Positions 23,382 to 50,982 of a stretch of 64,000 bases of DNA are shown one piece after another. The stretch comes from a phage, in the sequence record NC_101835.1; one strand, 5' to 3'. The translations under genes were made by a program, and so were the position numbers. How positions within the stretch are numbered: position 1 is the first letter of the stretch; every line of letters begins with the position of its first letter. Under the pieces are notes generated by a model that saw only the letters and a program-made list of their open reading frames with translations, did no database searches and had not been told where the DNA came from.

Positions 23382-23399
23382 GATAATTCAGTTAAAAAA

Positions 23400-23819
23400 T
23401 TATAATGATTCGTATATTTCAAAAATCCGATTTGCCAGGTCGTTACGGTAGCGGAATTTTTCCTCACGTTTGATCATAAGATCTTTATAGCCGTACTCTT
23501 TAAGCACTTCATTAACTTTATGGCGGCATACTTTCATATTATCCTGCGCGTCACCAATAAATCTGTTGCTATGGTGCATGGCTTTAATTTCTTCTTCCAG
23601 GACCAGGGCAACTATGCGGACCGGATCAAGCTGATAGGCGGTAACATCCATGCGGCATTGTAAACGGCTTTTTACGTCTGCCACCGGATATACTGCAACC
23701 TCTTCCCCGTCAACATTGACAATAATTAGTTTACCATCGATTTCGAATCCTTTCGCCGCCGGACCGTGACAAAAAGCGTTATCAAAGCTATATGCCGGAT
23801 TATTAGATTTAATGTTCAT
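23400..23819 (-). CDS. hypothetical protein
   Basis: Own promoter (TTGACA-17-TATATT on minus strand near 23890-23862); RBS AAGAGG. Confidence 0.55.
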   Translation of the reverse strand: MNIKSNNPAYSFDNAFCHGPAAKGFEIDGKLIIVNVDGEEVAVYPVADVKSRLQCRMDVTAYQLDPVRIVALVLEEEIKAMHHSNRFIGDAQDNMKVCRHKVNEVLKEYGYKDLMIKREEKFRYRNDLANRIFEIYESL

Positions 23820-23963
23820 GGTGTTTTTACCTCTTAGTTAATTTTCTTACAACTTCCCTTCAAAAAAGAATATAGCAAAACTGCCGATCCCTGTCAACCA
23901 GGGATAGCATAATTTTTATGTGATCAAGGGGCTTTATTGCCCCTGACCATGTAACTTGTTGTA

Positions 23964-24227
23964 TTATTTGTTGCTCATCCAGTTTTCCCAAGCTGCCTGA
24001 TAATCTGCCTCACTACGGCGGATCTCTTCTTGCTCTTCAAGGCGGATCTCTTCTTCCAGGTACCCCAAGATGTCAGCCTTTTTAGTCTGGCGCAGCATCC
24101 AGTCATCTTTTTTGCGAGTGAAGATCTTATAAGCTTTCTCGCAAACCTCTTTTTTGCTACCTTTCTGGACTTCAAGAACACGATAAGCCATATATTGAAC
24201 TAATTTGAGCTGATCAAGACGTTTCAT
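23964..24227 (-). CDS. hypothetical protein
   Basis: Leader hairpin GGGCC-aaaa-GGCCC (24260-24273) then cacaaagaggtaaacatc-ATG. Confidence 0.55.
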   Translation of the reverse strand: MKRLDQLKLVQYMAYRVLEVQKGSKKEVCEKAYKIFTRKKDDWMLRQTKKADILGYLEEEIRLEEQEEIRRSEADYQAAWENWMSNK

Positions 24228-24287
24228 GATGTTTACCTCTTTGTGCGGTTCTGATTAGTGGGCCTTTTGGCCCGTGTCATTATCTTA

Positions 24288-24560
24288 TTACTTATGGCGG
24301 CAGAATTCAAGCGTTTTTAATTGATAATCTTCCTCAGCTTGGAGTACGACCGCCTCGATCATTTCGTTGGCATTGTTAAAGCCATAACCTTTAGCGAACT
24401 CATCCGCGCCACCTTCGTGATCATGTTCTGCGTTCATCGCTTCCACAAAATGGAATTCCAAATTGTTGAGGTAGGGGCTTGATGTTCCGTCCTCTTTTTC
24501 GATGAGATCCCAAATAGCATTAAAACGTGATTCGACTTCTTGATTAATCCAGCTTGACAT
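24288..24560 (-). CDS. hypothetical acidic protein
   Basis: Leader hairpin GGGCA-aaag-TGCCC then RBS. Confidence 0.55.
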   Translation of the reverse strand: MSSWINQEVESRFNAIWDLIEKEDGTSSPYLNNLEFHFVEAMNAEHDHEGGADEFAKGYGFNNANEMIEAVVLQAEEDYQLKTLEFCRHK

Positions 24561-24668
24561 AGTGTTTTCCTCTCTCCTGGTTGTTGTGTGGGCACTTTTG
24601 CCCCTTCAAGATAAATGTTACCCCACCCCATGGCAGATGTCAACGGTTTTTATAGTTCTTATATGACA

Positions 24669-24711
24669 GGCAGGCCCGGTGATTGTCTCCCCCCGTCGCC
24701 AGGTGCCTGCC
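24669..24711 (-). other. conserved 43-nt stem-loop element, copy 1
   Basis: GGCAGGC...GCCTGCC imperfect hairpin just after a TTGCAA-16-TATACT promoter; related copies at 33658 and 33809. Confidence 0.5.
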
Positions 24712-24771
24712 GTGAAACAAGTATAACAAAAAACAGGACCATTGCAAGCCCTGTTTTGTAGTTTATAAATA

Positions 24772-24963
24772 TTATATTTTTTCGCCTATGTAGTCCGGTC
24801 GGTTTTTCTCTGTCATGCGCTTTAGCAATTCTTGCATGTTGCTTATGGCTTGTAGTGTATCCCCTTCCAGGCTTGAATCGACATAATCAGGATCGTCTAT
24901 GACCTTTCTATGATTATGATAACGCAGTACCGCCAATACCTTTCTGACTTGTTCGATATTCAT
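24772..24963 (-). CDS. hypothetical protein
   Basis: Track ORF. Confidence 0.5.
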   Translation of the reverse strand: MNIEQVRKVLAVLRYHNHRKVIDDPDYVDSSLEGDTLQAISNMQELLKRMTEKNRPDYIGEKI

Positions 24964-24975
24964 TTTTACCGCTCT

Positions 24976-25110
24976 TTAAAACAAGGTGCCAACCGTTTCC
25001 AATAGATCACTGACTGCCAGGACAATACCGATCAGCACATATCTAACCATAAGGGGAAAGAGCGCCAATATTGCCACCACAATCCCCAAGGTGATAATTA
25101 TCTTTCTCAT
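24976..25110 (-). CDS. small membrane peptide (about 44 aa)
   Basis: MRKIIITLGIVVAILALFPL...; below track cut-off. Confidence 0.3.
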   Translation of the reverse strand: MRKIIITLGIVVAILALFPLMVRYVLIGIVLAVSDLLETVGTLF

Positions 25111-25112
25111 GG

Positions 25113-25406
25113 TTAACGGTTCACGTAAGTTTTCCCGTTCACGGTTATGGGCAGATCCTCCAGGTCTGGATCTTCCTTAAGGTCGCGAGCAAGCTCACCG
25201 CACCGGATACCCTCGAATCCGTAGTACTCTGTTGTGCCGTCCTTAAAAGTTTTAGCGGCAAGGCATAAGCGATAAGTAACCCCGATTTGATTGACGGCAT
25301 GAATATCCGTTAGATTAACCTCTTTTGCCAGCTCTTTAGCCATTACAGGCGCATTAAGTCCAACAACCAGGGCAACCACTGCGATCATCTTTTTCATTGT
25401 GTCCAT
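25113..25406 (-). CDS. secreted protein (signal peptide)
   Basis: MKKMIAVVALVVGLNAPVMA signal-peptide-like N-terminus. Confidence 0.55.
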   Translation of the reverse strand: MDTMKKMIAVVALVVGLNAPVMAKELAKEVNLTDIHAVNQIGVTYRLCLAAKTFKDGTTEYYGFEGIRCGELARDLKEDPDLEDLPITVNGKTYVNR

Positions 25407-25488
25407 CCTCTTTCTGCTACGTTTAAGGCGGCGGTAACCGCCTGTTTATGCTTTGTTGGTTAATTTTCGGGTATAGGTATAAATTAAA

Positions 25489-25704
25489 CTATGCTGTACG
25501 CTCAACTATAACAACGGCTTGAGGGATCTCACCTTCAACCACTATCAAGGCTTTTTTCTGCGTGATAGATATCTTTACCCGCTTCAGCGTGGCGGTAAAA
25601 TCTTTCATTTCGTCACGTGGTGTTTTAGTGCAATACCAGATCTCAGGCTTGCCGATCTGTAAGTTGCGTAAAAATTCTGTTTTGCCTGTTTTGTTAGTGA
25701 TCAT
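25489..25704 (-). CDS. hypothetical protein
   Basis: Track ORF. Confidence 0.45.
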   Translation of the reverse strand: MITNKTGKTEFLRNLQIGKPEIWYCTKTPRDEMKDFTATLKRVKISITQKKALIVVEGEIPQAVVIVERTA

Positions 25705-25713
25705 TTGGCAACC

Positions 25714-25818
25714 TCACCCGATACCGTTGGAAGACAAGATCGCATTAGCCATGGTTGCAATCAGGCCAATACCCAGGGCAATAACCAAGATCACTGCATC
25801 GATTAATTTCTGTTTCAT
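25714..25818 (-). CDS. small membrane peptide (34 aa)
   Basis: MKQKLIDAVILVIALGIGLIATMANAILSSNGIG; leader hairpin 25854-25873. Confidence 0.3.
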   Translation of the reverse strand: MKQKLIDAVILVIALGIGLIATMANAILSSNGIG

Positions 25819-25895
25819 GGTGTTTATTCTCTTCTGTTAGTAACCTTATTCATGGGGCCGCTACCACAGCCCCAAGGTAAGGCAGCTATGTGCTT

Positions 25896-26141
25896 TTAGT
25901 GTTTCATTCCAACCATCGCGGCACGGATCGCCGTAGTGCTGTACTTGAAGCCGTCCGGGGTCTTATCTTGTCCGGTTAGCTCCAGAAAAAGCATCATATC
26001 CCGCGCCGCATCATTACGATTAGCATTGGCGTTAATAAAGCCTTGGGCCAACCGGTACAATGACTCATCGTTATTAATCCAAAGGCTTACATTCCAATGA
26101 GTTTTGTTTTTGTAACCGTTATAACCTTTATTGCTTTTCAT
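25896..26141 (-). CDS. hypothetical protein
   Basis: Leader hairpin GGTGG...CCACC then AAGAGG RBS. Confidence 0.55.
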   Translation of the reverse strand: MKSNKGYNGYKNKTHWNVSLWINNDESLYRLAQGFINANANRNDAARDMMLFLELTGQDKTPDGFKYSTTAIRAAMVGMKH

Positions 26142-26232
26142 GGTGTTTACCTCTTCTTTGTTCCAGGTGGCGGATCATTCTACCACCTTATGTATTATGC
26201 TTTGTTAGATGGTTGTTTGTTGTCAAACTATT

Positions 26233-26412
26233 TTACCGATAATCATCATATGCTTTATTTACCTGGCGAATATAACATTCAAAAGCCAAATCAATAGATT
26301 TATATTCACGGATATACTCACCATAGGAAACCACATACATTTCTATAGCTTCCTCATATGCGAGGAGAATAGAATCTAAGCCTACGATCTCAGTCTTTGC
26401 AATAATAGCCAT
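26233..26412 (-). CDS. hypothetical protein (59 aa)
   Basis: MAIIAKTEIVGLDSILLAYEEAIEMYV...; just below track cut-off. Confidence 0.35.
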   Translation of the reverse strand: MAIIAKTEIVGLDSILLAYEEAIEMYVVSYGEYIREYKSIDLAFECYIRQVNKAYDDYR

Positions 26413-26487
26413 GATTTTTTATCCTCTTTGTGGTTGGTGGGGTTCGTTGCCCCTTTGATTTATATATTACAGTCTTATATGGTCATG

Positions 26488-26721
26488 TCAACTATTTTCA
26501 AAAAATTTTTCTGCTGTGATATTCTTCCCGGTAGGGTTCGCTACTTTCAAAATTTTATCATGCACTGGACGCCCAAAAGAATAAGCGCCGTACACAGTAA
26601 ACCAATAATCGCCGTCAGGTTGTACTATTACTGCCGCATATGGTACGCCTTTTTCGTTTTTGCTGACAAAATAGATCACGTTGCCATTAATAGCCTCGGC
26701 GCGTTTAATTTGTTCCATCAT
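26488..26721 (-). CDS. hypothetical protein
   Basis: Track ORF. Confidence 0.5.
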   Translation of the reverse strand: MMEQIKRAEAINGNVIYFVSKNEKGVPYAAVIVQPDGDYWFTVYGAYSFGRPVHDKILKVANPTGKNITAEKFFENS

Positions 26722-26777
26722 GATGATTTGCCTCTCTTTATTTTCATAATTGGGGGGCCTTTTCGGCCCCGCCAGGT

Positions 26778-27062
26778 TTATTTATTGATAGCGTGCAGCG
26801 GGAAAGGTACGCCAGGTTGATAGATAACCTTTACAACCTCATCAGGACAAAAGAAGTTGCAGAACTCACCGCAATAGGCCTCATCCTCTTTCAACTCTTC
26901 ATCAACATACTCAAAAAAGTAGTCGATGCTTGGATAATCTTGACCAGGGTTATAATCAACCATAGTGAGGACCAGTTCAAGATCATTGCGGATGATATGC
27001 ATACCAGCTTTTAAATACTTCGCTTCCATTTTTACTACATCGCCAGCGGTAACAATAGCCAT
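26778..27062 (-). CDS. hypothetical protein
   Basis: Internal ATG (MAIVTAGD) with GGAG RBS; track ORF extends to 27128. Confidence 0.5.
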   Translation of the reverse strand: MAIVTAGDVVKMEAKYLKAGMHIIRNDLELVLTMVDYNPGQDYPSIDYFFEYVDEELKEDEAYCGEFCNFFCPDEVVKVIYQPGVPFPLHAINK

Positions 27063-27293
27063 GGTTTTAACTCCTGTTTCTGTTAATGATTGGAGGCATA
27101 ACCCCCCTCGACAACTCTTATTATCCATATTGTAGGGCTTGATGCAAGTACTTCTTTAAAAAAAAAAATTTTTTAAGTGCCTTGGAGGCCGCTGTAACGC
27201 CAAAATAATAAAGGCCATGCAACCGCATAGCCTTTATGTGATTATATCGCTGCAGGCCCTGCTAGGGGCCTTATTTTGCATCATTTGCCGGAA

Positions 27294-27602
27294 CTATACA
27301 GAGAAAACATCGTTCACAATAGCGATCACAATGCCGCCCACCTTGTCACGGTCAACAATGCACAAATCACCATAGATCATGTGGTAGTCTGGATGATCTT
27401 TCACGGAATAGTCAATGAGCGTTTTCTTGTCGTCCAGCTTTGTAACTTCCATTCTCATAACGATATGAGAATCATCAAAGGCATTATTCCGAAAAGTCAT
27501 AGCCTGACCACCAGGGCACCCAGTGATCTCCACTTCCACACCGTCTACGATCTGACCATCAAAGAAATAAAGATTATTAGCCAGGATAAACATGTTTATC
27601 AC
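27294..27602 (-). CDS. hypothetical protein
   Basis: Directly downstream of conserved 45-bp element copy 1; RBS AAGGAG. Confidence 0.55.
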   Translation of the reverse strand: MINMFILANNLYFFDGQIVDGVEVEITGCPGGQAMTFRNNAFDDSHIVMRMEVTKLDDKKTLIDYSVKDHPDYHMIYGDLCIVDRDKVGGIVIAIVNDVFSV

Positions 27603-27639
27603 TCCTTGTTAACTGCGTGTTATTTTACCACGATTAAAA

Positions 27640-27685
27640 TTTACTTTACTGATGGCCCTGGCGTCAAGGCCATCTAAAAATAAAT
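27640..27685 (-). promoter_or_regulatory. conserved 45-bp promoter/hairpin element, copy 1
   Basis: Minus strand TTTATTTTTAGATGGCC-TTGACGCCAG-GGCCATC...TAAATT: 7-bp stem flanking a -35-like TTGACG, then a -10-like hexamer. Confidence 0.45.
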
Positions 27686-27886
27686 TTACAGGCCTACAAT
27701 CTCTTTGATTCGTTTAACTGCTGCCTCAGCGCCTTGGGGGTAGAAATTATGGTAACCGATCACGCGAGTGATACTAATCGCAGTTTGATGATCTTCATAA
27801 TAGCCCTTGAAGATTTCTTGACCGTCAATCAGCACGGCAATTTTTTCTTCTTTTTTGAAGTTAATAACGCGGATATTGTTGCTCAT
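27686..27886 (-). CDS. hypothetical protein
   Basis: Leader hairpin GGGGA...TCCCC then AAGGAG RBS. Confidence 0.55.
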   Translation of the reverse strand: MSNNIRVINFKKEEKIAVLIDGQEIFKGYYEDHQTAISITRVIGYHNFYPQGAEAAVKRIKEIVGL

Positions 27887-28027
27887 TTTGTTTCTCCTTT
27901 CTGGTTTTTGTGTTGGTGGGGATTAGCTCCCCGTTGATTATTATTATCCATATTTCGGACCGGATTGCAACACCCCGGAAGAAAAATTTTTTGAAAAAGT
28001 TAGGCCCCCAGGGATCGGGGGCCGTTA

Positions 28028-28147
28028 TCAGTTACTTACAGCGATAAAATACATCCCTACGCCTAACAATATTTCAAGGGCGATGATCTCAAGCCATACC
28101 ATAACCCGGCGCACCTTATCGGTGCGGGGCTTATCCTTGGTTGTCAT
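28028..28147 (-). CDS. small membrane peptide (39 aa)
   Basis: MTTKDKPRTDKVRRVMVWLEIIALEILLGVGMYFIAVSN; below track cut-off. Confidence 0.3.
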   Translation of the reverse strand: MTTKDKPRTDKVRRVMVWLEIIALEILLGVGMYFIAVSN

Positions 28148-28407
28148 CGTCTCCCCCTTTCATCCTGGTAGTAGTGACGTGGTTTACAATGGCCCCCAGG
28201 AGTACCATCACCACGCACATCACAAGAAAAATTATCTCTGTCGTTGTTCGATCCATTGTTATAAAATTCCTTAAGATCAGGCCTGAAAATAAAGCGTTCG
28301 TTATTGAATCCATCACGCCAGGCGGCTGGCTTCAAATCTTCATCAAAGGGATTAATTAACGTGGTATTATTTAAACGGCTGGCCCACATATTTTCTATTC
28401 CTCTCAA
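28144..28407 (-). CDS. hypothetical protein (start uncertain)
   Basis: Track ORF; overlaps neighbouring ORF in another frame. Confidence 0.3.
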   Translation of the reverse strand: MRGIENMWASRLNNTTLINPFDEDLKPAAWRDGFNNERFIFRPDLKEFYNNGSNNDRDNFSCDVRGDGTPGGHCKPRHYYQDERGRR

Positions 28408-28738
28408 ATAGGCGATCCGCCTCAGTTAAACAAATCTCATGGGCGTGATCTCTGGTTTTAGCTTCATCGAAAACCTGTTGTGCAAGGCTGCAGCGTAGGG
28501 AGACTGGAAGATCACTATAATAGGCGTTGACAAATGTTTGCGCGTCATACAGGTCGGAAAATACTTTACCCTTTCTATTATCGCCTTTGTCAACAATTGC
28601 AAGGATAACAAGTACAATAGTTGCAACCACCCCCAGGAAAATAGATATAATAAACCATAAAAAGGCGGATCTACCCATCTTGCCAGCGATCCAGGCGTTA
28701 AACAAGGCAACTAATACGGCCAAAATAATAAATTCCAT
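28367..28738 (-). CDS. membrane protein (2 TM)
   Basis: Internal start MEFIILAVLVALF...; two hydrophobic helices. Confidence 0.5.
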   Translation of the reverse strand: MEFIILAVLVALFNAWIAGKMGRSAFLWFIISIFLGVVATIVLVILAIVDKGDNRKGKVFSDLYDAQTFVNAYYSDLPVSLRCSLAQQVFDEAKTRDHAHEICLTEADRLFERNRKYVGQPFK

Positions 28739-28802
28739 TCTATGTACCTCTTTTGCAGTTCTGTTTAACAATAAGGCGGCAAATATGCCGCCTGTTACCT
28801 GA

Positions 28803-29183
28803 TTAAAAATTATCGCCGTAAATCTTTCCGCTTTCTGCCCACACCACCACGCGGGGCATACTATCCCACACGTCTTGTTTTAGATTGAGCGCGTGCAATT
28901 CTTCGGTGGTGCCCATACCAGGCACGGGCTGATTGTATACTGCAAAACGACCACCCGCATAGTCATAGGCCAGAGTTAAATCACACTGGATCATCTTTTT
29001 GATCATGGCATTAAGCATGGCGTTAGCCGCATACTGATCACGTTTTAAAGGCAACTCTTTGATTAGTTTGCGATAGTTTTCAATGTGATCGCACACTGTT
29101 TCACGTGGAAGATCTTTCATATCCTCGCGAAAGGTAACCAGGTTAAACATGACGGTGTCAATAGCTTTAGTAGTGTTTTTCAT
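28803..29183 (-). CDS. hypothetical protein
   Basis: Internal ATG at 29183 preceded by AAGAGG and leader hairpin. Confidence 0.55.
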   Translation of the reverse strand: MKNTTKAIDTVMFNLVTFREDMKDLPRETVCDHIENYRKLIKELPLKRDQYAANAMLNAMIKKMIQCDLTLAYDYAGGRFAVYNQPVPGMGTTEELHALNLKQDVWDSMPRVVVWAESGKIYGDNF

Positions 29184-29207
29184 GATGTTTTCCTCTTTGT
29201 TTTGTGT

Positions 29208-29228
29208 GGGGGGCAAACGTCTTGCCCC
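29208..29228 (-). promoter_or_regulatory. 5' leader stem-loop (example of a recurring class)
   Basis: GGGGCAA-gacg-TTGCCCC about 8 nt after a TTGCAA-16-TATATT promoter and 25 nt before the ATG. Confidence 0.5.
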
Positions 29229-29273
29229 TTGAGTTTTAATATAGCAGGTTTTTAGATTATTGCAACACTTTAT

Positions 29274-29897
29274 TTATGAAAAACTCATCTCTCCATATTC
29301 ATCCACATCAAACCGCCAATCATTGGCCTCGATAAGGCCGATCAGGTTTTCGGTAGTAAATTGTTCAAGATAAGCTTGCTCCAGGTCTACGTAAACCTTG
29401 CGGGATAGTTCCCGTACGTTCTCGGTGATCAACTCTTCCAGCTCTTCAACCTTACTTTCTTGCTTGGCTGTCAGGTCTAGCCATGTAGTATCGATGTACC
29501 CGCTTACAGTGTTTTCGTGACTATAGCGGCTATATGGATCACGCTCAACACTTGCGGATAGCTCGCCATCGTGCATTGTGCCGAACAAGTGACGAATTGA
29601 GCGGAATTTAGTCAGAGACTTGACTTTACGCAAGAATTTTTCTAAATCCACGTTTTCCGCACTGATTGACGCGCCGTCGCCCTGGCACCAAAAGCCGGAC
29701 CAATGTACCTTGGTATCTTCAAGGCCATACTCTGGAAAGATATGTTCTTTATAGTCTTCAATTACACTTTCTGCAAAAAAGTTATCCCCGCTGTGTTCTT
29801 CTCTTTCGCGGACCATTTCAATAGCTTTTTCTTTTTGTTCATCGGTCAGCACGTCGAAAGATAAATTGTAACCTGTGGTAATGTTAACGGTGGTCAT
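29274..29897 (-). CDS. hypothetical protein (207 aa)
   Basis: Leader hairpin GGCGGGAA...TTCCCGCC at about 29925-29945. Confidence 0.55.
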   Translation of the reverse strand: MTTVNITTGYNLSFDVLTDEQKEKAIEMVREREEHSGDNFFAESVIEDYKEHIFPEYGLEDTKVHWSGFWCQGDGASISAENVDLEKFLRKVKSLTKFRSIRHLFGTMHDGELSASVERDPYSRYSHENTVSGYIDTTWLDLTAKQESKVEELEELITENVRELSRKVYVDLEQAYLEQFTTENLIGLIEANDWRFDVDEYGEMSFS

Positions 29898-29971
29898 GAT
29901 ATTTTCTCCTATTTTCTTTGTTAGTGGCGGGAAGTTTTCCCGCCTGTGTGTTTAAGTATACTTATCGAGAT

Positions 29972-30232
29972 TTACTTGTCAACACTATTTTTTAAATTAT
30001 TGTGGCGCAAAATGCTTAAAATCTCTTCAACGTCATCAACACGGCGGCAATTTTTAAACGCTACCAATTGCCCCATGATTTTAATCACTGGACGGCCTTG
30101 CCAGTGCCCCTGGAGAAAGCGCGCCTTGACTTTATCGGTGGAACTATCACGCCACCAAATGGCCTTGTTATTGCAGTAGTAAAAATTATTCAGGACAACA
30201 TCAACTTTATCAAAATTTTTTAATTTACGCAT
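29972..30232 (-). CDS. hypothetical protein
   Basis: Track ORF. Confidence 0.5.
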   Translation of the reverse strand: MRKLKNFDKVDVVLNNFYYCNNKAIWWRDSSTDKVKARFLQGHWQGRPVIKIMGQLVAFKNCRRVDDVEEILSILRHNNLKNSVDK

Positions 30233-30478
30233 GGCGTTTACTCCTTCCTTCTTGCTTTGATGTGGTTAGTATATCCGGACTATTCCAAGGTGTCAAGCTT
30301 TAAATAAAATCACTGTCAATGATATTTTTTAACACCATAAAACGGCCCTGGGTGATGTTTTCAGGTTAATAAAGGGGATTGCATAGGTAGGGGCTTTTGT
30401 GGCGTTTGTGGGGCCAACCAGGGGCGCTATTCGTAGGATAGAAATAAAAAACCCCGCACAATGGCGGGGCGTTGGTTG

Positions 30479-30676: not shown

Positions 30677-31019
30677 ATATTCCCCCCTTGCTAACTTCAA
30701 TATTGGCCTGAATAGCCCGGATACGGCGCTTTATAACCTCCTGATCCTTGCAATCATATCCCCAAAAGTCTACGATTTTTGCGCCTCCAGCCTTTAGGCG
30801 GTATAGTGTTTCTTGCATCTTGTAAGCCGGGATCGGTCGCGGTGTTACCTGGTCGCCCTTCTCATTCTTGTACTTGATAATGTAGTCTTCATTGTCGTTG
30901 AATACCCAAAATGGGTATTCTGTGAGCGCGTTGCTCTCTTTTTCGTTTTTAGATTGGATCTTGTTTACAATTAAAGCCGTAGCAATAGCGCCAATAATAA
31001 AACTTGCCCCGCTGATCAT
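30666..31019 (-). CDS. membrane-anchored protein
   Basis: Internal start MISGASFIIGAIATALIV (TM). Confidence 0.5.
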   Translation of the reverse strand: MISGASFIIGAIATALIVNKIQSKNEKESNALTEYPFWVFNDNEDYIIKYKNEKGDQVTPRPIPAYKMQETLYRLKAGGAKIVDFWGYDCKDQEVIKRRIRAIQANIEVSKGGIYED

Positions 31020-31094
31020 GTACTTTCTCCTTTCATTGTGTTGATAAACTATCTTTATAGATGGCCCTGCTACCAGGACCACCGAAAAAACAGC

Positions 31095-31340
31095 TTATTT
31101 GACGATACCGACAAAACAGATCCCGCCTTCCCCTATATAGGCAATATCGGTAATTTTATAATTTGTCAAGATCCGCGTGTTCAGATCATTAATAAAATCG
31201 GTCATCGCGTTGGTGTGGTTGTCTTCCGTGTCTAAGGCATAATCCCAGGTGTAAACCTTTTTACGTCCGAAGCCTTTTACCATGATACGGGCGCTTTTGG
31301 TGTTGGTAGGGGCATAATATTTGGTGATTAGTGCTGCCAT
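31095..31340 (-). CDS. hypothetical protein
   Basis: Downstream of conserved 45-bp element copy 2; RBS GAGGAG. Confidence 0.55.
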   Translation of the reverse strand: MAALITKYYAPTNTKSARIMVKGFGRKKVYTWDYALDTEDNHTNAMTDFINDLNTRILTNYKITDIAYIGEGGICFVGIVK

Positions 31341-31382
31341 GGTTTTAACTCCTCTGAATTAGTTCAGTGTTAACAGTATAAA

Positions 31383-31427
31383 GTTTACTTTATTGATGGC
31401 CCTGAAGTCAAGGCCATCTAAAAATAA
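31383..31427 (-). promoter_or_regulatory. conserved 45-bp promoter/hairpin element, copy 2
   Basis: GTTTACTTTATTGATGGCCCTGAAGTCAAGGCCATCTAAAAATAA, near-identical to copy 3. Confidence 0.45.
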
Positions 31428-31429
31428 TC

Positions 31430-31771
31430 TTACTCGTTTTCTTCCAGCTCCGCAAGCTCTTCTTTTGCTTCTTCTAACTCTGTCTGTAGTTCCTGGTATT
31501 CTTCATCGTCCTCAATATCCAGGCTGTCGATGTAGTCGCTAAATCCGCAGCGGTAAGCGATAGGATCTAGCTCCTTGAGGATACGCGACGGAAGAAAAGA
31601 AATGTTTCCGATCATAATTTCGCCGTAGATCTCGTCTAACCATTCATCATAGTTTTCGTCGTACTTGTCCTCGTCGATTTCAAAGTTATCGATCTTGTTC
31701 TCAAGGTCTGCGATCTGTTTTTTCAGCGCGGCGATCTGCATAGCTTTTTCTGCGGCGGTCATAGTAGTCAT
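31430..31771 (-). CDS. hypothetical acidic coiled-coil protein
   Basis: Leader hairpin GGGAA-gtt-TTCCC then RBS. Confidence 0.55.
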   Translation of the reverse strand: MTTMTAAEKAMQIAALKKQIADLENKIDNFEIDEDKYDENYDEWLDEIYGEIMIGNISFLPSRILKELDPIAYRCGFSDYIDSLDIEDDEEYQELQTELEEAKEELAELEENE

Positions 31772-31850
31772 GGTGTTTTCTCCTTTTGTGTGCTCTGGGA
31801 AGTTTTCCCGTTTACGTGTTTAAGTATATCGATCTAAGTTAGTTTGTCAA

Positions 31851-31970
31851 TTAAAAATTTAAGAAAAATTTTGCAAAACTGTTAGCGCTACTCATTAACA
31901 TTTGCGCCAGGATGTAACCGACAACGCAAACGATAATAGTTACCTTTGTGTATTGGCGTGTAGTGCTCAT
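31851..31970 (-). CDS. small membrane peptide (39 aa)
   Basis: MSTTRQYTKVTIIVCVVGYILAQMLM...; follows element copy 3. Confidence 0.35.
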   Translation of the reverse strand: MSTTRQYTKVTIIVCVVGYILAQMLMSSANSFAKFFLNF

Positions 31971-32004
31971 CTTAAAGCCCCCTTTTTTCGCTTAGTTGAG
32001 ATTA

Positions 32005-32049
32005 GTTTACTTTATTGATGGCCCTGAAGTCAAGGCCATCTAAAAATAA
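32005..32049 (-). promoter_or_regulatory. conserved 45-bp promoter/hairpin element, copy 3
   Basis: Same sequence as copy 2; directly after the stop of 32052-32546. Confidence 0.45.
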
Positions 32050-32051
32050 AC

Positions 32052-32447
32052 TTAGTAAGTTTTCAGTACTTTACCGTCCAACCTGTCAAGCTGGATCTCG
32101 ATAGCTGCAGAAAACCTATTGTAAACCACATCGCCCATAGAATCCAACCAGTCTATGACATTATACACCTGCTCTTTATTCTTGCAAGTCCGGATCCGTT
32201 TCATTACGTAAGACGGATCAATATTAGTGCTCCCGTTGTTGTGGTCATGCGCCTGGCCTGCTGCACTGGTTATAGATTTTACAACCACCTGAAAGGGCTT
32301 TAAGGTGCCTTTTGCGTTCATCTCACGCGCTTTTGCGGCGCGGTTGTTATATGTTACACAACGGCGGCAAATGTTGACTAAATGCATGTCAATAATTTTT
32401 TCATCGTTTGCCAGTTCGTTCATGATGCGGCGTACGTTCTTATTCAT
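32052..32447 (-). CDS. hypothetical protein
   Basis: Internal start MNKNVRRIMNE after leader hairpin GGCGGGAA-aca-TTCCCGCC. Confidence 0.5.
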   Translation of the reverse strand: MNKNVRRIMNELANDEKIIDMHLVNICRRCVTYNNRAAKAREMNAKGTLKPFQVVVKSITSAAGQAHDHNNGSTNIDPSYVMKRIRTCKNKEQVYNVIDWLDSMGDVVYNRFSAAIEIQLDRLDGKVLKTY

Positions 32448-32530
32448 GATCTTTTTTCCTTTGTGCTGGCGGGAAACATTCCCGCCTTTTGTGTCTAGTT
32501 TACTTAAATTTTGCAGCGTGTCAATGATTT

Positions 32531-32929
32531 TTATTCGTGGGCGCATGTCACAATGTGCTTTTTATAGCCCAGGTGGTCAGCAAGTGCCGACAAAAACTCT
32601 TCTTCGTAGATCCAGCCGTCGGCAGTGATCCCCATAGCATTTAATGCGCTCTCAAGTGCTGCGTTAGCTTTATCGTAACCGTGACCGCTAGCCTTGCCGC
32701 CAGTATAACCGTACTTATTGTTCTTGTTGTCGTGAATCCAAAACACGCAGTAGTGAGTGTTACCACTGGCGGCGGCATAATACCGGATCTCAGCTACTTC
32801 GTGCAAATTATTGTCATCGTCCAGGCCCACCAGATTATAAGCCTTGTAAAATCCACGATCACGGCGGCAGTTCTTGACATCAGAAAAAGAAAAGTCGGCA
32901 TTATCAAAATTAAAGGTTGTGGTTTTCAT
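32531..32929 (-). CDS. hypothetical protein
   Basis: Track ORF; RBS AAGAGG. Confidence 0.55.
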   Translation of the reverse strand: MKTTTFNFDNADFSFSDVKNCRRDRGFYKAYNLVGLDDDNNLHEVAEIRYYAAASGNTHYCVFWIHDNKNNKYGYTGGKASGHGYDKANAALESALNAMGITADGWIYEEEFLSALADHLGYKKHIVTCAHE

Positions 32930-32993
32930 GATTTTATCCTCTTAGTGTCTTTTGTGATTTCAGTATATTTTGTGTCAGACTACATGTCAATAT

Positions 32994-33191
32994 TTATTTT
33001 TTATTAAACCAGTGGTTGATCTGACCTTTTGTCAGGGCGCAACGATTAAGCTGTTGCAGGGTATAGCTATGACCGCGACGAAATTTATAAAGGCCTTGCC
33101 CGTTGTTGATGGTTACATCCACCCGGCAAATCACTTGATTGGTGACCACCTGGCGAGTGTTGCGACGTACTTTAATTCCGTAGGCGTTCAT
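32994..33191 (-). CDS. small basic protein
   Basis: Internal start MNAYGIKVRRNTRQ; RBS AGAGAGGA. Confidence 0.45.
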   Translation of the reverse strand: MNAYGIKVRRNTRQVVTNQVICRVDVTINNGQGLYKFRRGHSYTLQQLNRCALTKGQINHWFNKK

Positions 33192-33277
33192 GATTTTTTT
33201 ATCCTCTCTGTTAATTGGTGTGGTGTTGTTCACCTTGCGAGGATAAGAATAACAAGAACTGTCCGAGCTGTCAACCA

Positions 33278-33454
33278 TTAGTTAAAATTATTTTTTGGGT
33301 AGAATTCTCCAGCCGCCGCCCCTGCCAGGTTAACCATCATTTTTTCGTACTCTTCTTTATGTTCCAACGCTCCCGCCATAGCCTTTTCAACCAGGGCGAT
33401 AGCCTCAGCGTCATTAATAGCTACATTTTCCAGGGGGATCATATTACCTTCCAT
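33278..33454 (-). CDS. hypothetical protein (58 aa)
   Basis: MEGNMIPLENVAINDAEAIALVEKAMAGALEHKEEYEKMM...; RBS GAGGAGG. Confidence 0.35.
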   Translation of the reverse strand: MEGNMIPLENVAINDAEAIALVEKAMAGALEHKEEYEKMMVNLAGAAAGEFYPKNNFN

Positions 33455-33657
33455 TTTTGTACCTCCTCTTCAATTGTTACCTATCCTATAGCATAGGCCC
33501 ACCAGGTTTACAAGCCTTCATTCTCCCCTACCTGGTCAGTTAGGTCCTGCCAGGCTGGCCCCGCCAGGTTGCAGCGGTTAGCGCATCAGGTTAGAAAAAT
33601 TTTTTGAAAAGTGTTGACAGCGGCCCCGCCAGGTGGCACAATATACCTATCGAAAGG

Positions 33658-33693
33658 ACGGCAGGCACTGGTGACGGGGGAGACAACCACCGG
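33658..33693 (+). other. conserved stem-loop element, copy 2
   Basis: GGCAGGCACTGGTGACGGGGGAGACAACCACCGGGG, homologous to the reverse complement of 24669-24711. Confidence 0.45.
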
Positions 33694-33808
33694 GGATGGG
33701 CGCTGCATAAAATGAGAACGATTATCATTATCATTTAAAAATTTATGCAAAAAATCCTTGCTTTCTTTGTCCTGTGTGATACTATAATAACAAGCCGGGG
33801 CAACAGGG

Positions 33809-33832
33809 GCCGGGAGACAATCACCGGGCCTG
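33809..33832 (+). other. conserved stem-loop element, partial copy 3
   Basis: CGGGAGACAATCACCGGGCCTGCC matches the 3' half of the 24669 element. Confidence 0.45.
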
Positions 33833-33949
33833 CCCGTTATTCTGCAAACGAGAATGATTATCATTCAAAATTCTAAATGAGAACTCCTCGCATTTAATAA
33901 ATTTAATTAGCACGCTAATTACCTACCGTGACAATTATATATAAAATAA

Positions 33950-34440
33950 TACCTCCTAAAATATTTCCATATACAAATTTTAAAAATCCATTTCTGAAAA
34001 CGAAAAATCGATTTCGTCCCCAAAAATTTCAGGTCGAGATCCGGAACGATTTCCAGAAAATCCGATTTAGAAAACGAAAAACAGATCGAGTACTGAGAAA
34101 TTTATCGAGAAAAATTTTCAGAAAATCCAAGCCATGAAATGAAAAGTAGATCGAGTACTGGAAAAATTGTACCGCAACCCACTGATAGTGATGGGTTTTC
34201 CGTCATAAATCACTAAGAGTGAGTGGAGAAAGGTATGGTGGAGAGGTGTGTATGTGTGGGAAATCTGTAATGGTGGCCTGAAATATGGTGCAAACGGCTA
34301 GATAGATTGGCACAATTTTCCGCGCCTGTGTTGAAAAAATCCATTTTAGTTTTCGATCCATTTTCTGATTTTCTAAGGATTTTAAAATATCCTGGTAGGT
34401 AAAATATCAAAAGGAGGAAATCCATTTTAGAAATCCCCCT
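33950..34440. repeat. AT-rich iteron region
   Basis: GAAAATCC(A/G)(A/T)TT five times, AGATCGAGTACTG twice (34083, 34148), palindrome TAATTAGC-ac-GCTAATTA near 33903. Confidence 0.55.
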
Positions 34441-34470
34441 TATACTTGATATGCCAGGAATTTTCAAGTA

Positions 34471-34800
34471 TCAGTTGTCTTTGTTTTTAGGTTTGTACAT
34501 GCGCAGAGGTATGGTCTTTGTAACATTCCATTTCCTCAACCCTTCCCAGCTCCAGTTGTGGGCGTGGTATCCGGTTATGCATGCACTACTGGAGTGATCG
34601 TAAGCATAAGAGAACGCTAAGCGCACCAGGTGGGGCCAGTCCTTCCATGGTTGTGGACCGTAAGCTTTTCTCCAACACCGACACAAACTAAATGTCTCAA
34701 GGATAGGAAGGATAACAAACCCATACACTGTCACCAAAATAGTCAGTGCAATGATTGTCAGGAACACATACCCTGCAGTTGAAATGATGATCTCTGTCAT
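34471..34800 (-). CDS. membrane protein
   Basis: N-terminal TM; ATGA coupling. Confidence 0.5.
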   Translation of the reverse strand: MTEIIISTAGYVFLTIIALTILVTVYGFVILPILETFSLCRCWRKAYGPQPWKDWPHLVRLAFSYAYDHSSSACITGYHAHNWSWEGLRKWNVTKTIPLRMYKPKNKDN

Positions 34801-35000
34801 TTGTCGTCCCCTTTCTTACGGATATAAATGTGAGAACCTGCCTGTATATAAATTTCTCGACCATCTTCTGCGAAGATGTGGAATACACGGTCACCTTCGT
34901 ACTCAATACGAGATATCTTCATAGTGGTCTTCCCACCGGGGATACGGATCTCATCACCCACAGCAATGTTCCATGCGGATTTAAGCTTAAACATCAGCAC
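34797..35000 (-). CDS. hypothetical protein
   Basis: Track ORF. Confidence 0.5.
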   Translation of the reverse strand: MLMFKLKSAWNIAVGDEIRIPGGKTTMKISRIEYEGDRVFHIFAEDGREIYIQAGSHIYIRKKGDDK

Positions 35001-35232
35001 CCTCCTTTGGGAACTTAAACTCTGGCATAGCCATGTACGCTACAACAGGGTTGTGATCAAAGTAGAACTGACCGTTAATTATCCCGGTTTTGTCCACATA
35101 GTTACCAGATCCTGCAAGAACAACCTCGCAAGCTCCGAAATCCACATTGCCATCCTCATCAGCCATGGCTACGATATACTTTCCAAGAGGCATGTTTTTA
35201 ACGCCGTCTACAAATGTCCACTCTGTGTTCAT
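34987..35232 (-). CDS. hypothetical protein
   Basis: Track ORF. Confidence 0.5.
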   Translation of the reverse strand: MNTEWTFVDGVKNMPLGKYIVAMADEDGNVDFGACEVVLAGSGNYVDKTGIINGQFYFDHNPVVAYMAMPEFKFPKEGADV

Positions 35233-35241
35233 ACTTTACCC

Positions 35242-35574
35242 TTAAGGTAGCCAGTAAACAATCTCGCCTTTCAGCTTCATGTCGTTTCCAACATAAATTT
35301 CCCAGCCATCCATCTTAGCCACTGCAGGAGTGAAGTCCGTAGAACCACTAACCTCTTTCCAAGTCCCGTAGTCAGGTTGCCAGATATAGAATCCACCTTC
35401 CTTGTCCCATGCTCCATATACCACATCGAGCAGGTTGCCCATTGCAACAATAATAGGCCGTGGGAATAATACATCTACAGATGCGCCACAATTTCGGGTA
35501 TCTTTTAAGTTGCAATCCCAAAAGATGTCTGCCAGTGTGGCGGCGATAGCTTTACGTCTTTCCAATGTTACCAT
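35242..35574 (-). CDS. hypothetical protein
   Basis: Track ORF. Confidence 0.5.
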   Translation of the reverse strand: MVTLERRKAIAATLADIFWDCNLKDTRNCGASVDVLFPRPIIVAMGNLLDVVYGAWDKEGGFYIWQPDYGTWKEVSGSTDFTPAVAKMDGWEIYVGNDMKLKGEIVYWLP

Positions 35575-35581
35575 ATCATAC

Positions 35582-35773
35582 TCACTTGTTGTTAAGAAGT
35601 TCTAAAACTTTCTGTTTTACTTTATCAAGATCTGTTGATTCAAAAACTGTGCGATATCCCCAACTTTGCCCGTAGGAGTGACTGCAATCCCCGTAGCACC
35701 ATTGCTCAATTTGATAGTATTCAAGGAACGGGTGCTGTCTAACTATGATACCATCCCGGTTAAAAATTACCAT
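35582..35773 (-). CDS. hypothetical protein
   Basis: Track ORF. Confidence 0.45.
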   Translation of the reverse strand: MVIFNRDGIIVRQHPFLEYYQIEQWCYGDCSHSYGQSWGYRTVFESTDLDKVKQKVLELLNNK

Positions 35774-35836
35774 AATACATCACTCTCTGTTAGTTTATGC
35801 ATATATTATACACTGCAGTTTTCAGATGTCAATCTT

Positions 35837-36031
35837 TTACAGGTTACTCCAGTATAATCGGCATTTACATTTTGGGCAATGAGGTTCTTTTATGTAATAA
35901 CCATCAGTCTTTGGAACACTTTTTGGTGCAGTTTTAAGATTGTACCTGGTAAAACATCGGAAGCAGGTTACCTCTCCCACCTGTTGATCGTTGATCCACT
36001 CACCAGAGTAAAGCTCTTTCTTGTTTCTCAT
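35837..36031 (-). CDS. small zinc-ribbon protein
   Basis: Internal start MRNKKELY; CFRC...CPKCKC. Confidence 0.45.
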   Translation of the reverse strand: MRNKKELYSGEWINDQQVGEVTCFRCFTRYNLKTAPKSVPKTDGYYIKEPHCPKCKCRLYWSNL

Positions 36032-36282
36032 AATTCTCTCCCAAATCCTCTGCAATCTTATACCAAAATCTCCAGCCAGAAAGCACACGGGAACACTTTG
36101 AGGATTGAATCTTTACTTGGCTCGGAAGTTCTTTTTCCGTATGGTAGGTAGAAATACCCTCCTGCAGATTCGAATATAGCTCCTTCGGTTGTATCTACCA
36201 CAGCAAGAATTAAGATTTTAGTCTCCACAGTGCTCTCCTCTCTTAGTTGTTGTGGAGACTATATCACCTCAGAAGATGGTCG

Positions 36283-36681
36283 TCAACACTTTTTGTACTC
36301 TACTACAACCACATCAATATCTGTGGTTGCAAGATTAATTACATCTTCTACATGTTCCCACTTTAGACCGCCAATACCGCATCCGATTTTAGGAATGTAG
36401 AACGGCAATGACACACCTTTGAATACCTCGTTGACTCGCTCAAAACCTTTCATGATTGAGAAGTATTCAGCATTGGGCCCTGGGTAGAACTGGGTATACA
36501 GGTTGATTCCATATACGACCCTGTTCTTGGCAAAATGCTCCCAACAAGAAAACATACCCAGCTTGCCTAGATCACCATAAGCAGTCTCTTTGTCGGCTGC
36601 CAGTGCTTGAGGGAACTCACGGGCAATATCTTTCGCTATGCCTGCACCCATTGTGTGAAAGCAGTTACAACCGTGGATCAT
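36283..36681 (-). CDS. putative macro-domain-like (ADP-ribose binding/processing) protein
   Basis: N-terminal HGCNCFHTMGAGIAKDI pattern resembles macro-like domains; from memory only. Confidence 0.35.
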   Translation of the reverse strand: MIHGCNCFHTMGAGIAKDIAREFPQALAADKETAYGDLGKLGMFSCWEHFAKNRVVYGINLYTQFYPGPNAEYFSIMKGFERVNEVFKGVSLPFYIPKIGCGIGGLKWEHVEDVINLATTDIDVVVVEYKKC

Positions 36682-36731
36682 GTGGCCCGACCCTTTCTTG
36701 AAAAGAGAGATTAGATCTCCCCCCTATAGTA

Positions 36732-37157
36732 TCAATAATCACGGTATGCCAGCTCCTCTTCCGCAATTTCAAAAAACTCAGTCCAGCACTGTGGCATATT
36801 GGAGTTACCGAAGTGGCTTTCATAGTAAAGGTTCTCACCGCTCGGGAGGTAGAAATCTGTTACCTCGTAGAATCCACAATCGTCGCACTCACCTTCTTCA
36901 AACTTGGCCTCAACCTTAATACCGAGGAAGGTGAAAAGTTTATGGATATCTTCAGTTTCGAACTCCCAGCAAATATTGTTTTCCGCATCGGTATAGAACT
37001 GGATCAGCAGACCATTGTCCAGTTTACCAAAATACTCTGTGAAGTAACTTCCTTCCCAGAAATCTTTATGACAAATAATATCCATGCGTTTGCCCATAAT
37101 AATGGTGTGAGCGTTTTGGGCATCGTCACGAATCAGTTTTGGCATTTCATAGATCAT
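36732..37157 (-). CDS. hypothetical acidic protein
   Basis: Track ORF. Confidence 0.5.
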   Translation of the reverse strand: MIYEMPKLIRDDAQNAHTIIMGKRMDIICHKDFWEGSYFTEYFGKLDNGLLIQFYTDAENNICWEFETEDIHKLFTFLGIKVEAKFEEGECDDCGFYEVTDFYLPSGENLYYESHFGNSNMPQCWTEFFEIAEEELAYRDY

Positions 37158-37225
37158 CTTAGTTCTCCGGGTTCAACAGGTGGTGGTGCTACAGGAAGAT
37201 CATAAAACATGGCTATCACAGTCTC

Positions 37226-37423
37226 TTACACAGGAATTGCTTCAAATAGACCGTTATCTATACCGTCCTTCAGATAGAGATTATATTCTATGTCGGTATC
37301 TGTATAAAGGGCAGCATCCAGCATTCTATCTGTGAGTCCATCCATCGGGTGGAGAAACCACCACCCACGCCAGTCAAAGTAACAGCCTGGTGCATCTTCT
37401 CTTACACGGATTCGATAAATCAT
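37226..37423 (-). CDS. hypothetical protein
   Basis: Track ORF. Confidence 0.45.
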   Translation of the reverse strand: MIYRIRVREDAPGCYFDWRGWWFLHPMDGLTDRMLDAALYTDTDIEYNLYLKDGIDNGLFEAIPV

Positions 37424-37519
37424 GGGCAGTGGCCTCCTGTTAGTTATACATCCCAGTTTTCTTCGTTCATCACGTCCTCCCGTTTTATGAAGTTATAATT
37501 GCACACCTTTCAACCTGTG

Positions 37520-37936
37520 TCAACAGAAAACTTCAACAAATTCTTCCACAGTTTTAATGTCATGGGAAAAAGGTTTACGGCTATAACGGGCAATAGCACT
37601 ATCAACCACCGCCCGATACTCAAGATCTTCAGAATATTTCATGAAGCATTGCAGCGTCTCTGGGCAGATAGCTAAATAGCTCCACCACCCTTCTTCAGAT
37701 TGGTAGTCGAATCCCATACTCTCCAACCATGAAGCATATACTCCAGCACCCTCAAGCCAGTGAGTATTTTCATCCAGAAACTTGTTAACAGACATGTGAG
37801 CTTCTAAGCACTTGTCCAGCTCTTTTCCGTTAACCAGCCACGCACTAACTGTGGCGCATCCAAGGTCTACAGATTGAGTTGACAGGTTGTATTGGTCATA
37901 GTTCTCAGGTTTAACAATGATATCTTCTAATGTCAT
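37520..37936 (-). CDS. hypothetical protein
   Basis: Track ORF. Confidence 0.5.
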   Translation of the reverse strand: MTLEDIIVKPENYDQYNLSTQSVDLGCATVSAWLVNGKELDKCLEAHMSVNKFLDENTHWLEGAGVYASWLESMGFDYQSEEGWWSYLAICPETLQCFMKYSEDLEYRAVVDSAIARYSRKPFSHDIKTVEEFVEVFC

Positions 37937-37998
37937 TTTTCAGATCTCCTTATACAAAAATGCCCCACCCTTTCGGGCAGGGCTATGTCAGTTAGGTG

Positions 37999-38577: not shown

Positions 38578-38585
38578 AACTGACC

Positions 38586-50922: not shown

Positions 50923-50982
50923 CGTTTAGTGCTTCCTTAGTTTTTGTGGGGAGGAGTGCCTCCCCTTTAGACTAACATCTTA

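Follow-up and report, generated by a model that had tools for sequence, protein, structure and literature searches.

Probable PeSL-type promoter and stem-loop cassettes between the small early genes of a Vequintavirus, with a hairpin at a fixed offset from the -10 hexamer

What is the role of the short GC-rich hairpins that lie between the small minus-strand genes of the phage record NC_101835.1? The window analyzed here, a stretch of 64,000 nucleotides (nt), carries a leftward array of short open reading frames (ORFs) between positions 23400 and 37936. For these genes, the original prediction had proposed a sigma70-like promoter, a hairpin at the presumed transcript start, and an A/C-rich leader in front of each gene sampled, and had taken a structured 5' end on every monocistronic message to be unusual and a sign of regulated RNA stability or processing. 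The span matches about 300 phage records, the best match being Escherichia phage JES2013 (100% coverage, 95.5% identity). All full-length matches are rV5-like myoviruses of the genus Vequintavirus, and records with the host given as Campylobacter bear identical sequence; on the strength of these matches, the window is assigned to Vequintavirus, that is, to an rV5-like myovirus of Escherichia coli. The array is probably a hyperplastic early region of ORFan genes, interspersed with composite cassettes of the type known as PeSLs (promoter-early stem-loop cassettes), whose hairpin would act as a gene-boundary element at the RNA level. Judged from its sequence features, the pattern is of the known PeSL kind in another phage lineage, with a new dominant geometry: a stem that is predicted to be transcribed and is held at a fixed offset.

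Each intergenic gap of the array was read on the minus strand. The order sigma70-like promoter, GC hairpin 8–13 nt past the -10, A/C-rich leader, Shine-Dalgarno (SD) sequence and ATG, termed class A, was found in eleven gaps (Table 1), two of which, preceding the genes that start at 26141 and 25397, have a doubtful promoter. The two leaders quoted in the original prediction lie at 29207-29184 and 24245-24228, immediately before the start codons at 29183 and 24227. Folding of the predicted 5' untranslated regions gave a single 5'-proximal hairpin followed by an open SD region in 11 of 11 cases. Folding energies of the individual hairpins ranged from -5.5 to -14.6 kcal/mol, with z-scores below -2 relative to shuffled sequences for only about half of them. 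For about eleven transcripts, a hairpin close to the predicted 5' start is thus supported, but the layout does not extend to each message: other gaps have a promoter without any hairpin, a hairpin that covers the -35 or -10, or a terminator.

Clustering of these elements in the array is far beyond chance expectation. A scan for the composite motif detected 10 sites on the minus strand of 23300-43300, compared with 0.23 +/- 0.44 expected (maximum 2) from 100 dinucleotide-preserving shuffles; since the cassettes are paralogous and the orthologues kin, the shuffle statistics and the gap distribution describe non-independent samples. On the plus strand and in the rest of the window, the motif is nearly absent. 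When the allowed distance between -10 and stem was widened to 0–30 nt, the stringent sites of the window were still found at 9–11 nt only. Intergenic GC hairpins number 28, with GGGG..CCCC and GGCGGG..CCCGCC among their stems, and their density of 6.67 per kb is 4.6 times that in coding sequence (1.46 per kb). Promoter-like sites number 72, as against 38.5 +/- 5.4 in shuffles, and the top eleven, all on the minus strand, match the consensus at 10–12 of 12 positions, in agreement with the earlier picture, in which small early genes of the ORFan type run leftward behind sigma70 promoters close to the consensus. Between stem and SD, 84% of the leader is A+C (51% regionally); the composition of the pre-SD leader is A 56%, C 28%, G 10% and T 6%, compared with 31, 19.5, 23.6 and 25.7% in the region.

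The hairpins are maintained in related phages. Relatives were drawn from GenBank phage records, IMG/VR contributing two close relatives only. A column-wise count of compensatory changes was set aside because of alignment slippage in the G/C runs (64 "broken" cells, mostly gaps), and conservation was judged by folding each orthologue independently and by comparing substitution rates of stems and loops. In 10 relatives of about 90–95% identity, none of the orthologous class A sites has lost its hairpin, and the stability is similar although the sequences show substitutions, indels in the G/C runs, added G-U pairs and two loop inversions. Differences from the window per site amount to 0.21 in loops, 0.072 in stems, 0.061 in promoters, 0.077 in leaders and 0.045 in coding sequence; the difference between loop and stem is significant (Fisher p 8.5e-13), with the sequences being phylogenetically non-independent. 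The stem-loop is conserved as a structure, and the loop is free to change. In the hairpins 32486-32468 and 29228-29210, the loop is exactly inverted in some relatives (L004, L005 and L010), AATGTTT being replaced by AAACATT and CAAGACGTTTG by CAAACGTCTTG. From the aligned sequences, this inversion is read as the footprint of hairpin-templated strand switching in DNA.

GC hairpins also occur at other positions. About 6–7 gaps have a promoter without a hairpin; about 8 GC hairpins lie over or before a -35 (over it at 32040, 31418, 27674, 24757 and 23905), one lies over a -10 (41527-41499), and 5–7 are real terminators. A hairpin that covers the -35 or the -10 cannot be the 5' leader of the transcript from its own promoter, and as the hairpin type is identical, a structured 5' end is not supported as the common principle of the array. 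Class A hairpins and those with the -35 in the loop (class B) have 0–3 T residues within the 9 nt past the stem, whereas the true terminators of the array have 5–8.

This spectrum of positions has been described before, so the arrangement cannot be regarded as new in kind. PeSLs were described in the T4-like phages RB49/phi1 (Arbiol et al. 2010, PMC2839356) and later in the pairs T4/PST and KVP40/nt-1 (Comeau et al. 2014, PMC4122927). They comprise five subclasses defined by stem position, including one "downstream of the -10" (PMC2839356); they extend into the following gene's SD and start codon, concentrate among ORFans in hyperplastic regions, and mediate modular shuffling through recombination (PMC2839356; PMC4122927). 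Experiments on RB49/phi1 cassettes demonstrated promoter and terminator activity as well as mini-circles (PMC2839356). In the window, an A/T-rich stretch with the stop codon of the upstream gene, a predicted early promoter close to the sigma70 consensus, an adjacent G(n)-loop-C(n) stem-loop (some stems being weak), and an SD with start codon, as in "gaaTAAaaatcaTTGACA...", follow each other within about 60–100 nt between genes. The stem occurs after the -10 (11 cases), over the -35 (about 8), over the -10 (41527), or upstream in a terminator-like position; the cassettes reside among the ORFans of a hyperplastic region, and they bound indels between close relatives. What differs is the lineage, which is Vequintavirinae, and also Stephanstirmvirinae, instead of the T4-like Straboviridae. 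Neither PeSL-like cassettes nor 5' hairpins were found described for rV5-like or phAPEC8-like phages in the searchable literature, and papers mentioning PeSLs deal with T4-like or jumbo phages. The rV5 genome paper lists 33 promoters, of host type throughout, and 20 terminators, and the record of phage Murica annotates some such stems as terminators.

Recombination at the cassettes is evident from a comparison with 8 relatives, in which the megablast breakpoints of about ten indels or replacements fall at gene boundaries or cassettes; three were verified at the nucleotide level, and one breakpoint, at 25760, falls within a 34-amino-acid ORF. An identical 46-nt cassette pair (32049-32004 and 31427-31382) brackets the genes 31970..31851 and 31771..31430. 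Phages ECP26 and ECP32 are without both genes and have instead one chimeric cassette that joins the left flank of one repeat to the other's right flank, a topology as in the ORF192 example of RB49. A crossover in the leader has linked the class A cassette of gene 26141 to a different ORF in ECP26, and in ECP32, an extra gene is inserted just past the leader of the class A cassette of gene 24227. A repeat finder independently recovered D1 (four copies) and D4 (two copies) as cassette families. Paralogous cassettes, together with gene-sized indels that start or end in them, point to recombination modules which shuffle ORFans along with their own expression signals. Demonstrable paralogy (D1, D4) would also agree with mere ancestry, meaning that the likeness results from duplication of genes with their upstream regions and that the hairpins are degenerating terminators. 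This explanation is improbable, given that every orthologue keeps its hairpin while the loops drift, and that wholly different stems hold an equal position and the G(n)-loop-C(n) form in three genera.

The dominant geometry was assessed with RB49 as a positive control, of which 40 kb were read. Its intergenic design is equal, with A/C-rich leaders such as "ataccaaaacaactaaggag", and it has one after-the-10 cassette with a gap of 10 nt. Most RB49 stems extend across the -10 or are placed in the spacer, and the cassette's own transcript starts past them; in the window, 11 of about 27 cassettes have the stem at +10/+11 past the -10, where it is predicted to be transcribed. With identical scan settings, 6 of the 16 strong promoters of RB49 have a stem over the -10 (offset -14), as compared to 6 of the 12 strongest in the window with a stem at +10 to +13. 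Phage Av-05 (Avunavirus) has after-the-10 cassettes with gaps of 10–12 nt and unrelated stems, as well as stems over the -10, and at least seven such cassettes are present in phAPEC8 (Stephanstirmvirinae), again with unrelated stems and for the most part with a gap of 10 nt. The phAPEC8 record labels a recurring stem 20-mer as "putative promoter determined with PHIRE". These features, at 7078-7097, 8493-8512, 9343-9362 and 9724-9743, coincide with the GC hairpin GTAGGGCGGCAATGGTGCCG, 10 nt past a sigma70-type -10, and by this placement they are not to be taken as separate promoters.

In which strand, and in which molecule, the hairpins act was inferred from G-U pairs, on the premise that these are tolerated solely in the RNA of the functional strand. 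For true terminators, the count of G-U pairs is 20 in the minus sense and zero in the plus sense. For class B hairpins the numbers are 35 and 12, and the minus sense is more stable by about 2 kcal/mol (p 5e-5). Since class B hairpins lie upstream of their own start and nevertheless show a signature at the RNA level, they must act in the read-through RNA of the upstream gene, and such a signature in hairpins outside their own transcript supports a gene-boundary role as the common function. Class A stems are mostly perfect palindromes, with several variants stable in the minus sense only.

The same data bear on the idea that the hairpins are plus-strand terminators which guard the array against antisense transcription, or DNA palindromes devoid of a role in RNA. 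Palindromic class A stems and the two loop inversions, which show template switching of palindromes in DNA, accord with it, and a plus-strand terminator-like call was obtained for five class A hairpins, since the A-rich segment from -10 to stem is T-rich when read in that direction. However, the T tracts are inconsistent (GTTGATTATT, CTTCAAGATA, GTGTCATTAT) and absent in Av-05, class B hairpins and several class A variants are far more stable in the minus sense (-11.5 versus -4.2, and -14.1 versus -7.8 kcal/mol), and the array is faced by neither genes nor strong promoters on the plus strand. We therefore consider this proposal unlikely to be correct.

Still less credible is a site for a sequence-specific factor, be it boxB/nut-like antitermination, a translational repressor, or a DNA operator palindrome. 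The hairpins are promoter-proximal and some resemble lambda boxB in stem size and A-rich loop (GGGCCaaaaGGCCC at 24273-24260; GGGGCCgaaaaGGCCCC at 26770-26754), and short promoter-proximal RNA hairpins are likewise a feature of lambda nut sites. In contrast to nut sites, loop and stem sequences differ among the cassettes, the loops evolve about three times faster than the stems and are inverted between relatives (tgt/aca; CAAGACGTTTG/CAAACGTCTTG), and no boxA-like element (within 1 mismatch) adjoins any hairpin. No Rfam family was found in the array region at gathering or permissive thresholds, the sole match, snR9 (E 0.56), being attributable to chance. G-U variants that are stable in minus-sense RNA only argue against a double-stranded DNA operator. 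Hairpin promoters like those of the N4 virion RNA polymerase, which resemble the present elements in having a short hairpin (5–8 bp, often with a 3-nt loop) near transcription starts, were rejected, since here the hairpin is 10 nt downstream of a good sigma70 -35/-10 pair; moreover, hairpin sequences vary between cassettes. Sites for RNase III, which needs about two helical turns, were rejected as well because the stems have just 4–10 bp.

A more serious competitor is a dedicated 5'-terminal stem-loop that controls messenger RNA (mRNA) stability or processing by shielding the 5' triphosphate from RppH and RNase E. The leader hairpin of ompA protects the 5' end from both enzymes, and the class A transcripts as predicted look much the same, with a stable GC hairpin near the 5' end followed by an unstructured leader and SD. 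The single 5'-proximal hairpin of the folded leaders, the regular start of the stem 8–13 nt (mode 10) past the -10 in the window, Av-05 and phAPEC8 with unrelated stems, and the U depletion of the leader (6% T), which fits avoidance of RNase E sites, all agree with this function. The predicted overhang does not. Many cassettes have C7-A8 (Y7-R8) past the -10, which predicts an A-rich overhang of about 2–5 nt, typically 3. RppH and RNase E require 2 or more unpaired nt, with a preference for 3 or more, and RppH favours a purine at position 2 (PMC8833179); protection of the ompA type tolerates at most 1–2 unpaired nt (PMC8833179). Protection of the 5' end would consequently be weak at best. Furthermore, RNase E readily bypasses simple or orthogonal stem-loops (PMC9943677), about half of the promoter-bearing gaps lack a 5' hairpin or have it upstream of the start, and RB49 cassettes of equal type place the stem outside their own transcript. 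Control of mRNA stability as the dedicated purpose of the class A hairpin thus seems possible, with the balance of the evidence against it.

As for the boundary function that we favour, host RNA polymerase would start about 7–8 nt past each -10, as suggested by the near-consensus hexamers and the host-type promoters of the rV5 paper, and with such a start the class A stem-loop would be the first structured element of the mRNA, after about 3 unpaired nt. Each cassette would consist of an A/T-rich stretch with the upstream stop, a strong promoter for host sigma70, a stem-loop of the form G(n)-loop-C(n), and an A/C-rich leader, poor in U, that contains the SD and the start codon. The class A hairpin would also lie in the 3' part of read-through transcripts from the upstream gene, where, as a 3' element of that message, it may attenuate read-through, block 3' exonucleases, or both; it may add modest protection of the 5' end. 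The U-poor leader presumably keeps the ribosome-binding site open and RNase E sites few. A 3' role is reminiscent of intrinsic terminators and of 3' stabilizers resembling repetitive extragenic palindromes, which are likewise intergenic GC stem-loops downstream of genes, and class B hairpins share the minus-sense G-U signature of terminators. Unlike the terminators with T tails that occur separately in the array, class A and B hairpins have no U tract right after the stem.

Several observations weigh against this interpretation. Without the U tract, efficient intrinsic termination is unlikely by established rules, and the experimental support for termination comes from one RB49 stem-loop (PMC2839356). 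The strand bias of class A hairpins is weak (G-U pairs 21 versus 28; mean folding energy -10.7 versus -10.1 kcal/mol; p 0.016 with non-independent variants), and several of the hairpins themselves are weak (4–5 bp; z > -1.5). Promoter use, start sites and any termination are predictions from the DNA, and literature searches found no transcript mapping for Vequintavirus. PeSLs have been defined in T4-like phages only, so that membership here would follow from shared features and not from demonstrated common ancestry. Finally, a pure boundary or recombination role does not predict the tight +10/+11 offset in three genera, which hints at a function linked to the transcription start. Class A might accordingly be a dedicated 5' signal of early mRNAs, conserved across rV5-like and phAPEC8-like phages, and not a relocated PeSL terminator, a view to which we assign a rather low probability. 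In the module so envisaged, a GC clamp fixed at +10/+11 relative to the -10 would follow the start after about 3 nt and be succeeded by a U-depleted, A/C-rich spacer. Such a signal could act in promoter escape or pausing that couples translation, as an RNase-protection mark on phage transcripts, or in connection with a non-canonical 5' cap.

Table 1. Cassettes, hairpins and terminators in and near the minus-strand array. Promoters are given as -35 hexamer, spacer length and -10 hexamer, followed by the distance from the -10 to the stem.
Positions	Strand	Feature	Elements	Basis and remarks
23400..37936	-	early ORF array, hyperplastic ORFan region		gene call: 43 ORFs, 34-207 amino acids
32445..32524	-	class A	TTGACA-16-TAAACT, 10 nt, hairpin 32486-32468 (GGCGGGAAtgtTTCCCGCC), leader agcacaaaggaaaaaagatc, ATG 32447	fold -14.6 kcal/mol, z -3.2
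31769..31850	-	class A	TTGACA-16-TATACT, 13 nt, hairpin 31809-31797 (GGGAAaacTTCCC), ATG 31771	D4 repeat-family paralogue (76% identity) of the cassette at 29982; hairpin weak, with -5.9 kcal/mol and z -1.1
29895..29982	-	class A	TTGACA-16-TATACT, 10 nt, hairpin 29944-29926, ATG 29897	z -5.2; promoter spacer holds the stop codon of the upstream gene
29181..29265	-	class A	TTGCAA-16-TATATT, 9 nt, hairpin 29228-29210, leader ccacacaaaacaaagaggaaaacatc, ATG 29183	gap reading, fold; orthologues keep the hairpin despite sequence changes, G-U pairs and a loop flip
27884..27978	-	class A	TTGCAA-16-GATAAT, 10 nt, hairpin 27932-27918, ATG 27886	gap reading, fold; second hairpin 27978-27960 with the -35 in its loop
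27060..27146	-	class A	weak hairpin 27107-27092, ATG 27062	z -0.2 in the window; orthologues in relatives have stronger G(n)/C(n) stems
26410..26491	-	class A	TTGACA-16-TAATAT, 10 nt, hairpin 26453-26439, ATG 26412	gap reading, composite scan, fold
26139..26226	-	class A-like	hairpin 26188-26165, ATG 26141	gap reading, fold; atypical promoter spacing
25395..25470	-	class A-like	hairpin 25443-25426, ATG 25397	gap reading, fold; convincing -35 absent
24558..24643	-	class A	TTGACA-17-TAACAT, 11 nt, hairpin 24603-24590, ATG 24560	gap reading, composite scan, fold
24225..24310	-	class A	hairpin 24273-24260 (GGGCCaaaaGGCCC), leader ...cacaaagaggtaaacatc, ATG 24227	gap reading, fold
50920..51005	-	class A, beyond the span of the original prediction	TTGACT-17-TAAGAT, 11 nt, GGGGAGGCACTCCTCCCC, acaaaaactaaggaag	composite scan
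32004..32049	-	class B	hairpin GATGGCC-TTGACTTC-AGGGCCATC, -35 in loop, then TAAACT as -10	upstream copy of the identical 46-nt pair
31382..31427	-	class B		downstream copy of the identical 46-nt pair
27638..27688	-	class B		third copy, repeat family D1 (88% identity)
31047..31097	-	diverged class B		family D1, 69% identity
24730..24757	-	hairpin over -35	TTGCAA (-35) in loop, T-rich tail	indel junction: 354-nt insertion in relatives; -35 in loop and T-rich tail indicate overlap of terminator and promoter
23887..23905	-	hairpin over -35	TTGACA (-35) in loop	promoter of gene 23819
41499..41527	-	class C, beyond the span of the original prediction	loop = -10 (TGATAGGGCC-TAATATAAT-GGCCCTATCA)	12/12 consensus promoter
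37962..37983	-	true intrinsic terminator	hairpin and T tract	strand-specific G-U signature
30470-30451, 28793-28774, 28023-28003, 23381-23364	-	further true terminators

The gene content of the array is largely as originally predicted, the 43 called ORFs corresponding to the approximately 40 short minus-strand ORFs, one of them macro-like and none with a recognisable replication or structural function. In relatives, 40–43 proteins are annotated across the same span, nearly all as hypothetical. According to the minus-strand gene call, upstream gaps are mostly 56–96 nt long; 31 gaps are at least 40 nt long and 10 are shorter than 25 nt, and ten genes are translationally coupled or tightly packed. 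The Macro domain at 36286-36681 (PF01661, E 6e-6; phrog_335), a homologue of T4 Tk.4, is the sole Pfam match, and for the other array proteins that were scanned, Pfam and PHROGs yielded PHROGs of unknown function or no match, hence no assignable function beyond this domain. Reading the array as an anti-defence island is plausible. The Macro ORF (36283-36741) comprises 132 amino acids in the window; its counterparts in relatives have 152 and overlap the gene upstream. In the window there is an intervening stop, and the ATG follows a gap of 50 nt that includes a G run, which suggests an indel or frameshift at the N terminus.

The array contains further repeats. An A/T palindrome (minus strand CTTTTTCAAAAAATTTTTCTT) recurs just upstream of several promoters (27979-28003, 33592-33616, 26486-26512 and others) and was found as both a direct and an inverted repeat family; it could be an UP-element-like or factor-binding site. 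Two arms of a 29-nt inverted repeat, 24663-24691 (arm A) and 33812-33840 (arm B), are 93% complementary and 9.1 kb apart. Because both are located in long ORF-free gaps of the minus-strand array, the two minus-strand RNAs are predicted to be mutually complementary. Arm A is situated about 30 nt downstream of the promoter at 24757-24730, within a predicted hairpin of -25 kcal/mol. ECP26 and ECP32 show a matching 3-nt change in both arms, which keeps the pairing between the arms and breaks the local hairpin of arm A; in two other phages, this change is present in arm B only. The repeat could represent a pair of small RNA and target, or gene conversion between repeats. Three imperfect tandem copies of a T/A-rich 65-nt unit (62–100% identity) at 33965-34168, within the 462-nt ORF-free gap 33751-34212, are iteron-like and could be a regulatory or replication-related site.

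Outside the array, about 20000-23400 lacks a convincing ORF on either strand; it is the "non-coding" box of the rV5 map, located between converging plus-strand and minus-strand gene blocks, and it contains two short tandem repeats, one with an 18-nt unit (22014-22050) and one with 4.9 copies of the 10-nt unit TGACATACTG (22347-22395). A group I intron was detected at 43407-43642 on the minus strand, with a match to the full length of Rfam model RF00028 (64.7 bits, E 4e-14). On one side of it is an 809-amino-acid ORF that ends at 43627, on the other a small ORF (43245-43003), and the intron probably interrupts a gene of replication or nucleotide metabolism.

The assignment of the cassettes to the PeSL type would extend these mobile regulatory elements beyond the T4-like phages to two more subfamilies of large E. 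coli myoviruses, and would correct annotations in which such hairpins are called terminators or "phage-specific promoters". The single feature that the known PeSL model leaves unexplained is the fixed +10/+11 offset, and with it there is a residual chance of something more novel; a transcribed hairpin at a fixed position would at the same time provide a clean, testable case for the role of PeSL stem-loops. The cassettes may also serve as ready-made parts combining a strong promoter and a leader, and would predict safe insertion points for engineered genes. For the phages themselves, which are widely used in therapy and typing, they would offer a concrete mechanism for the fast turnover of ORFan genes, possibly including genes of host takeover or anti-defence.

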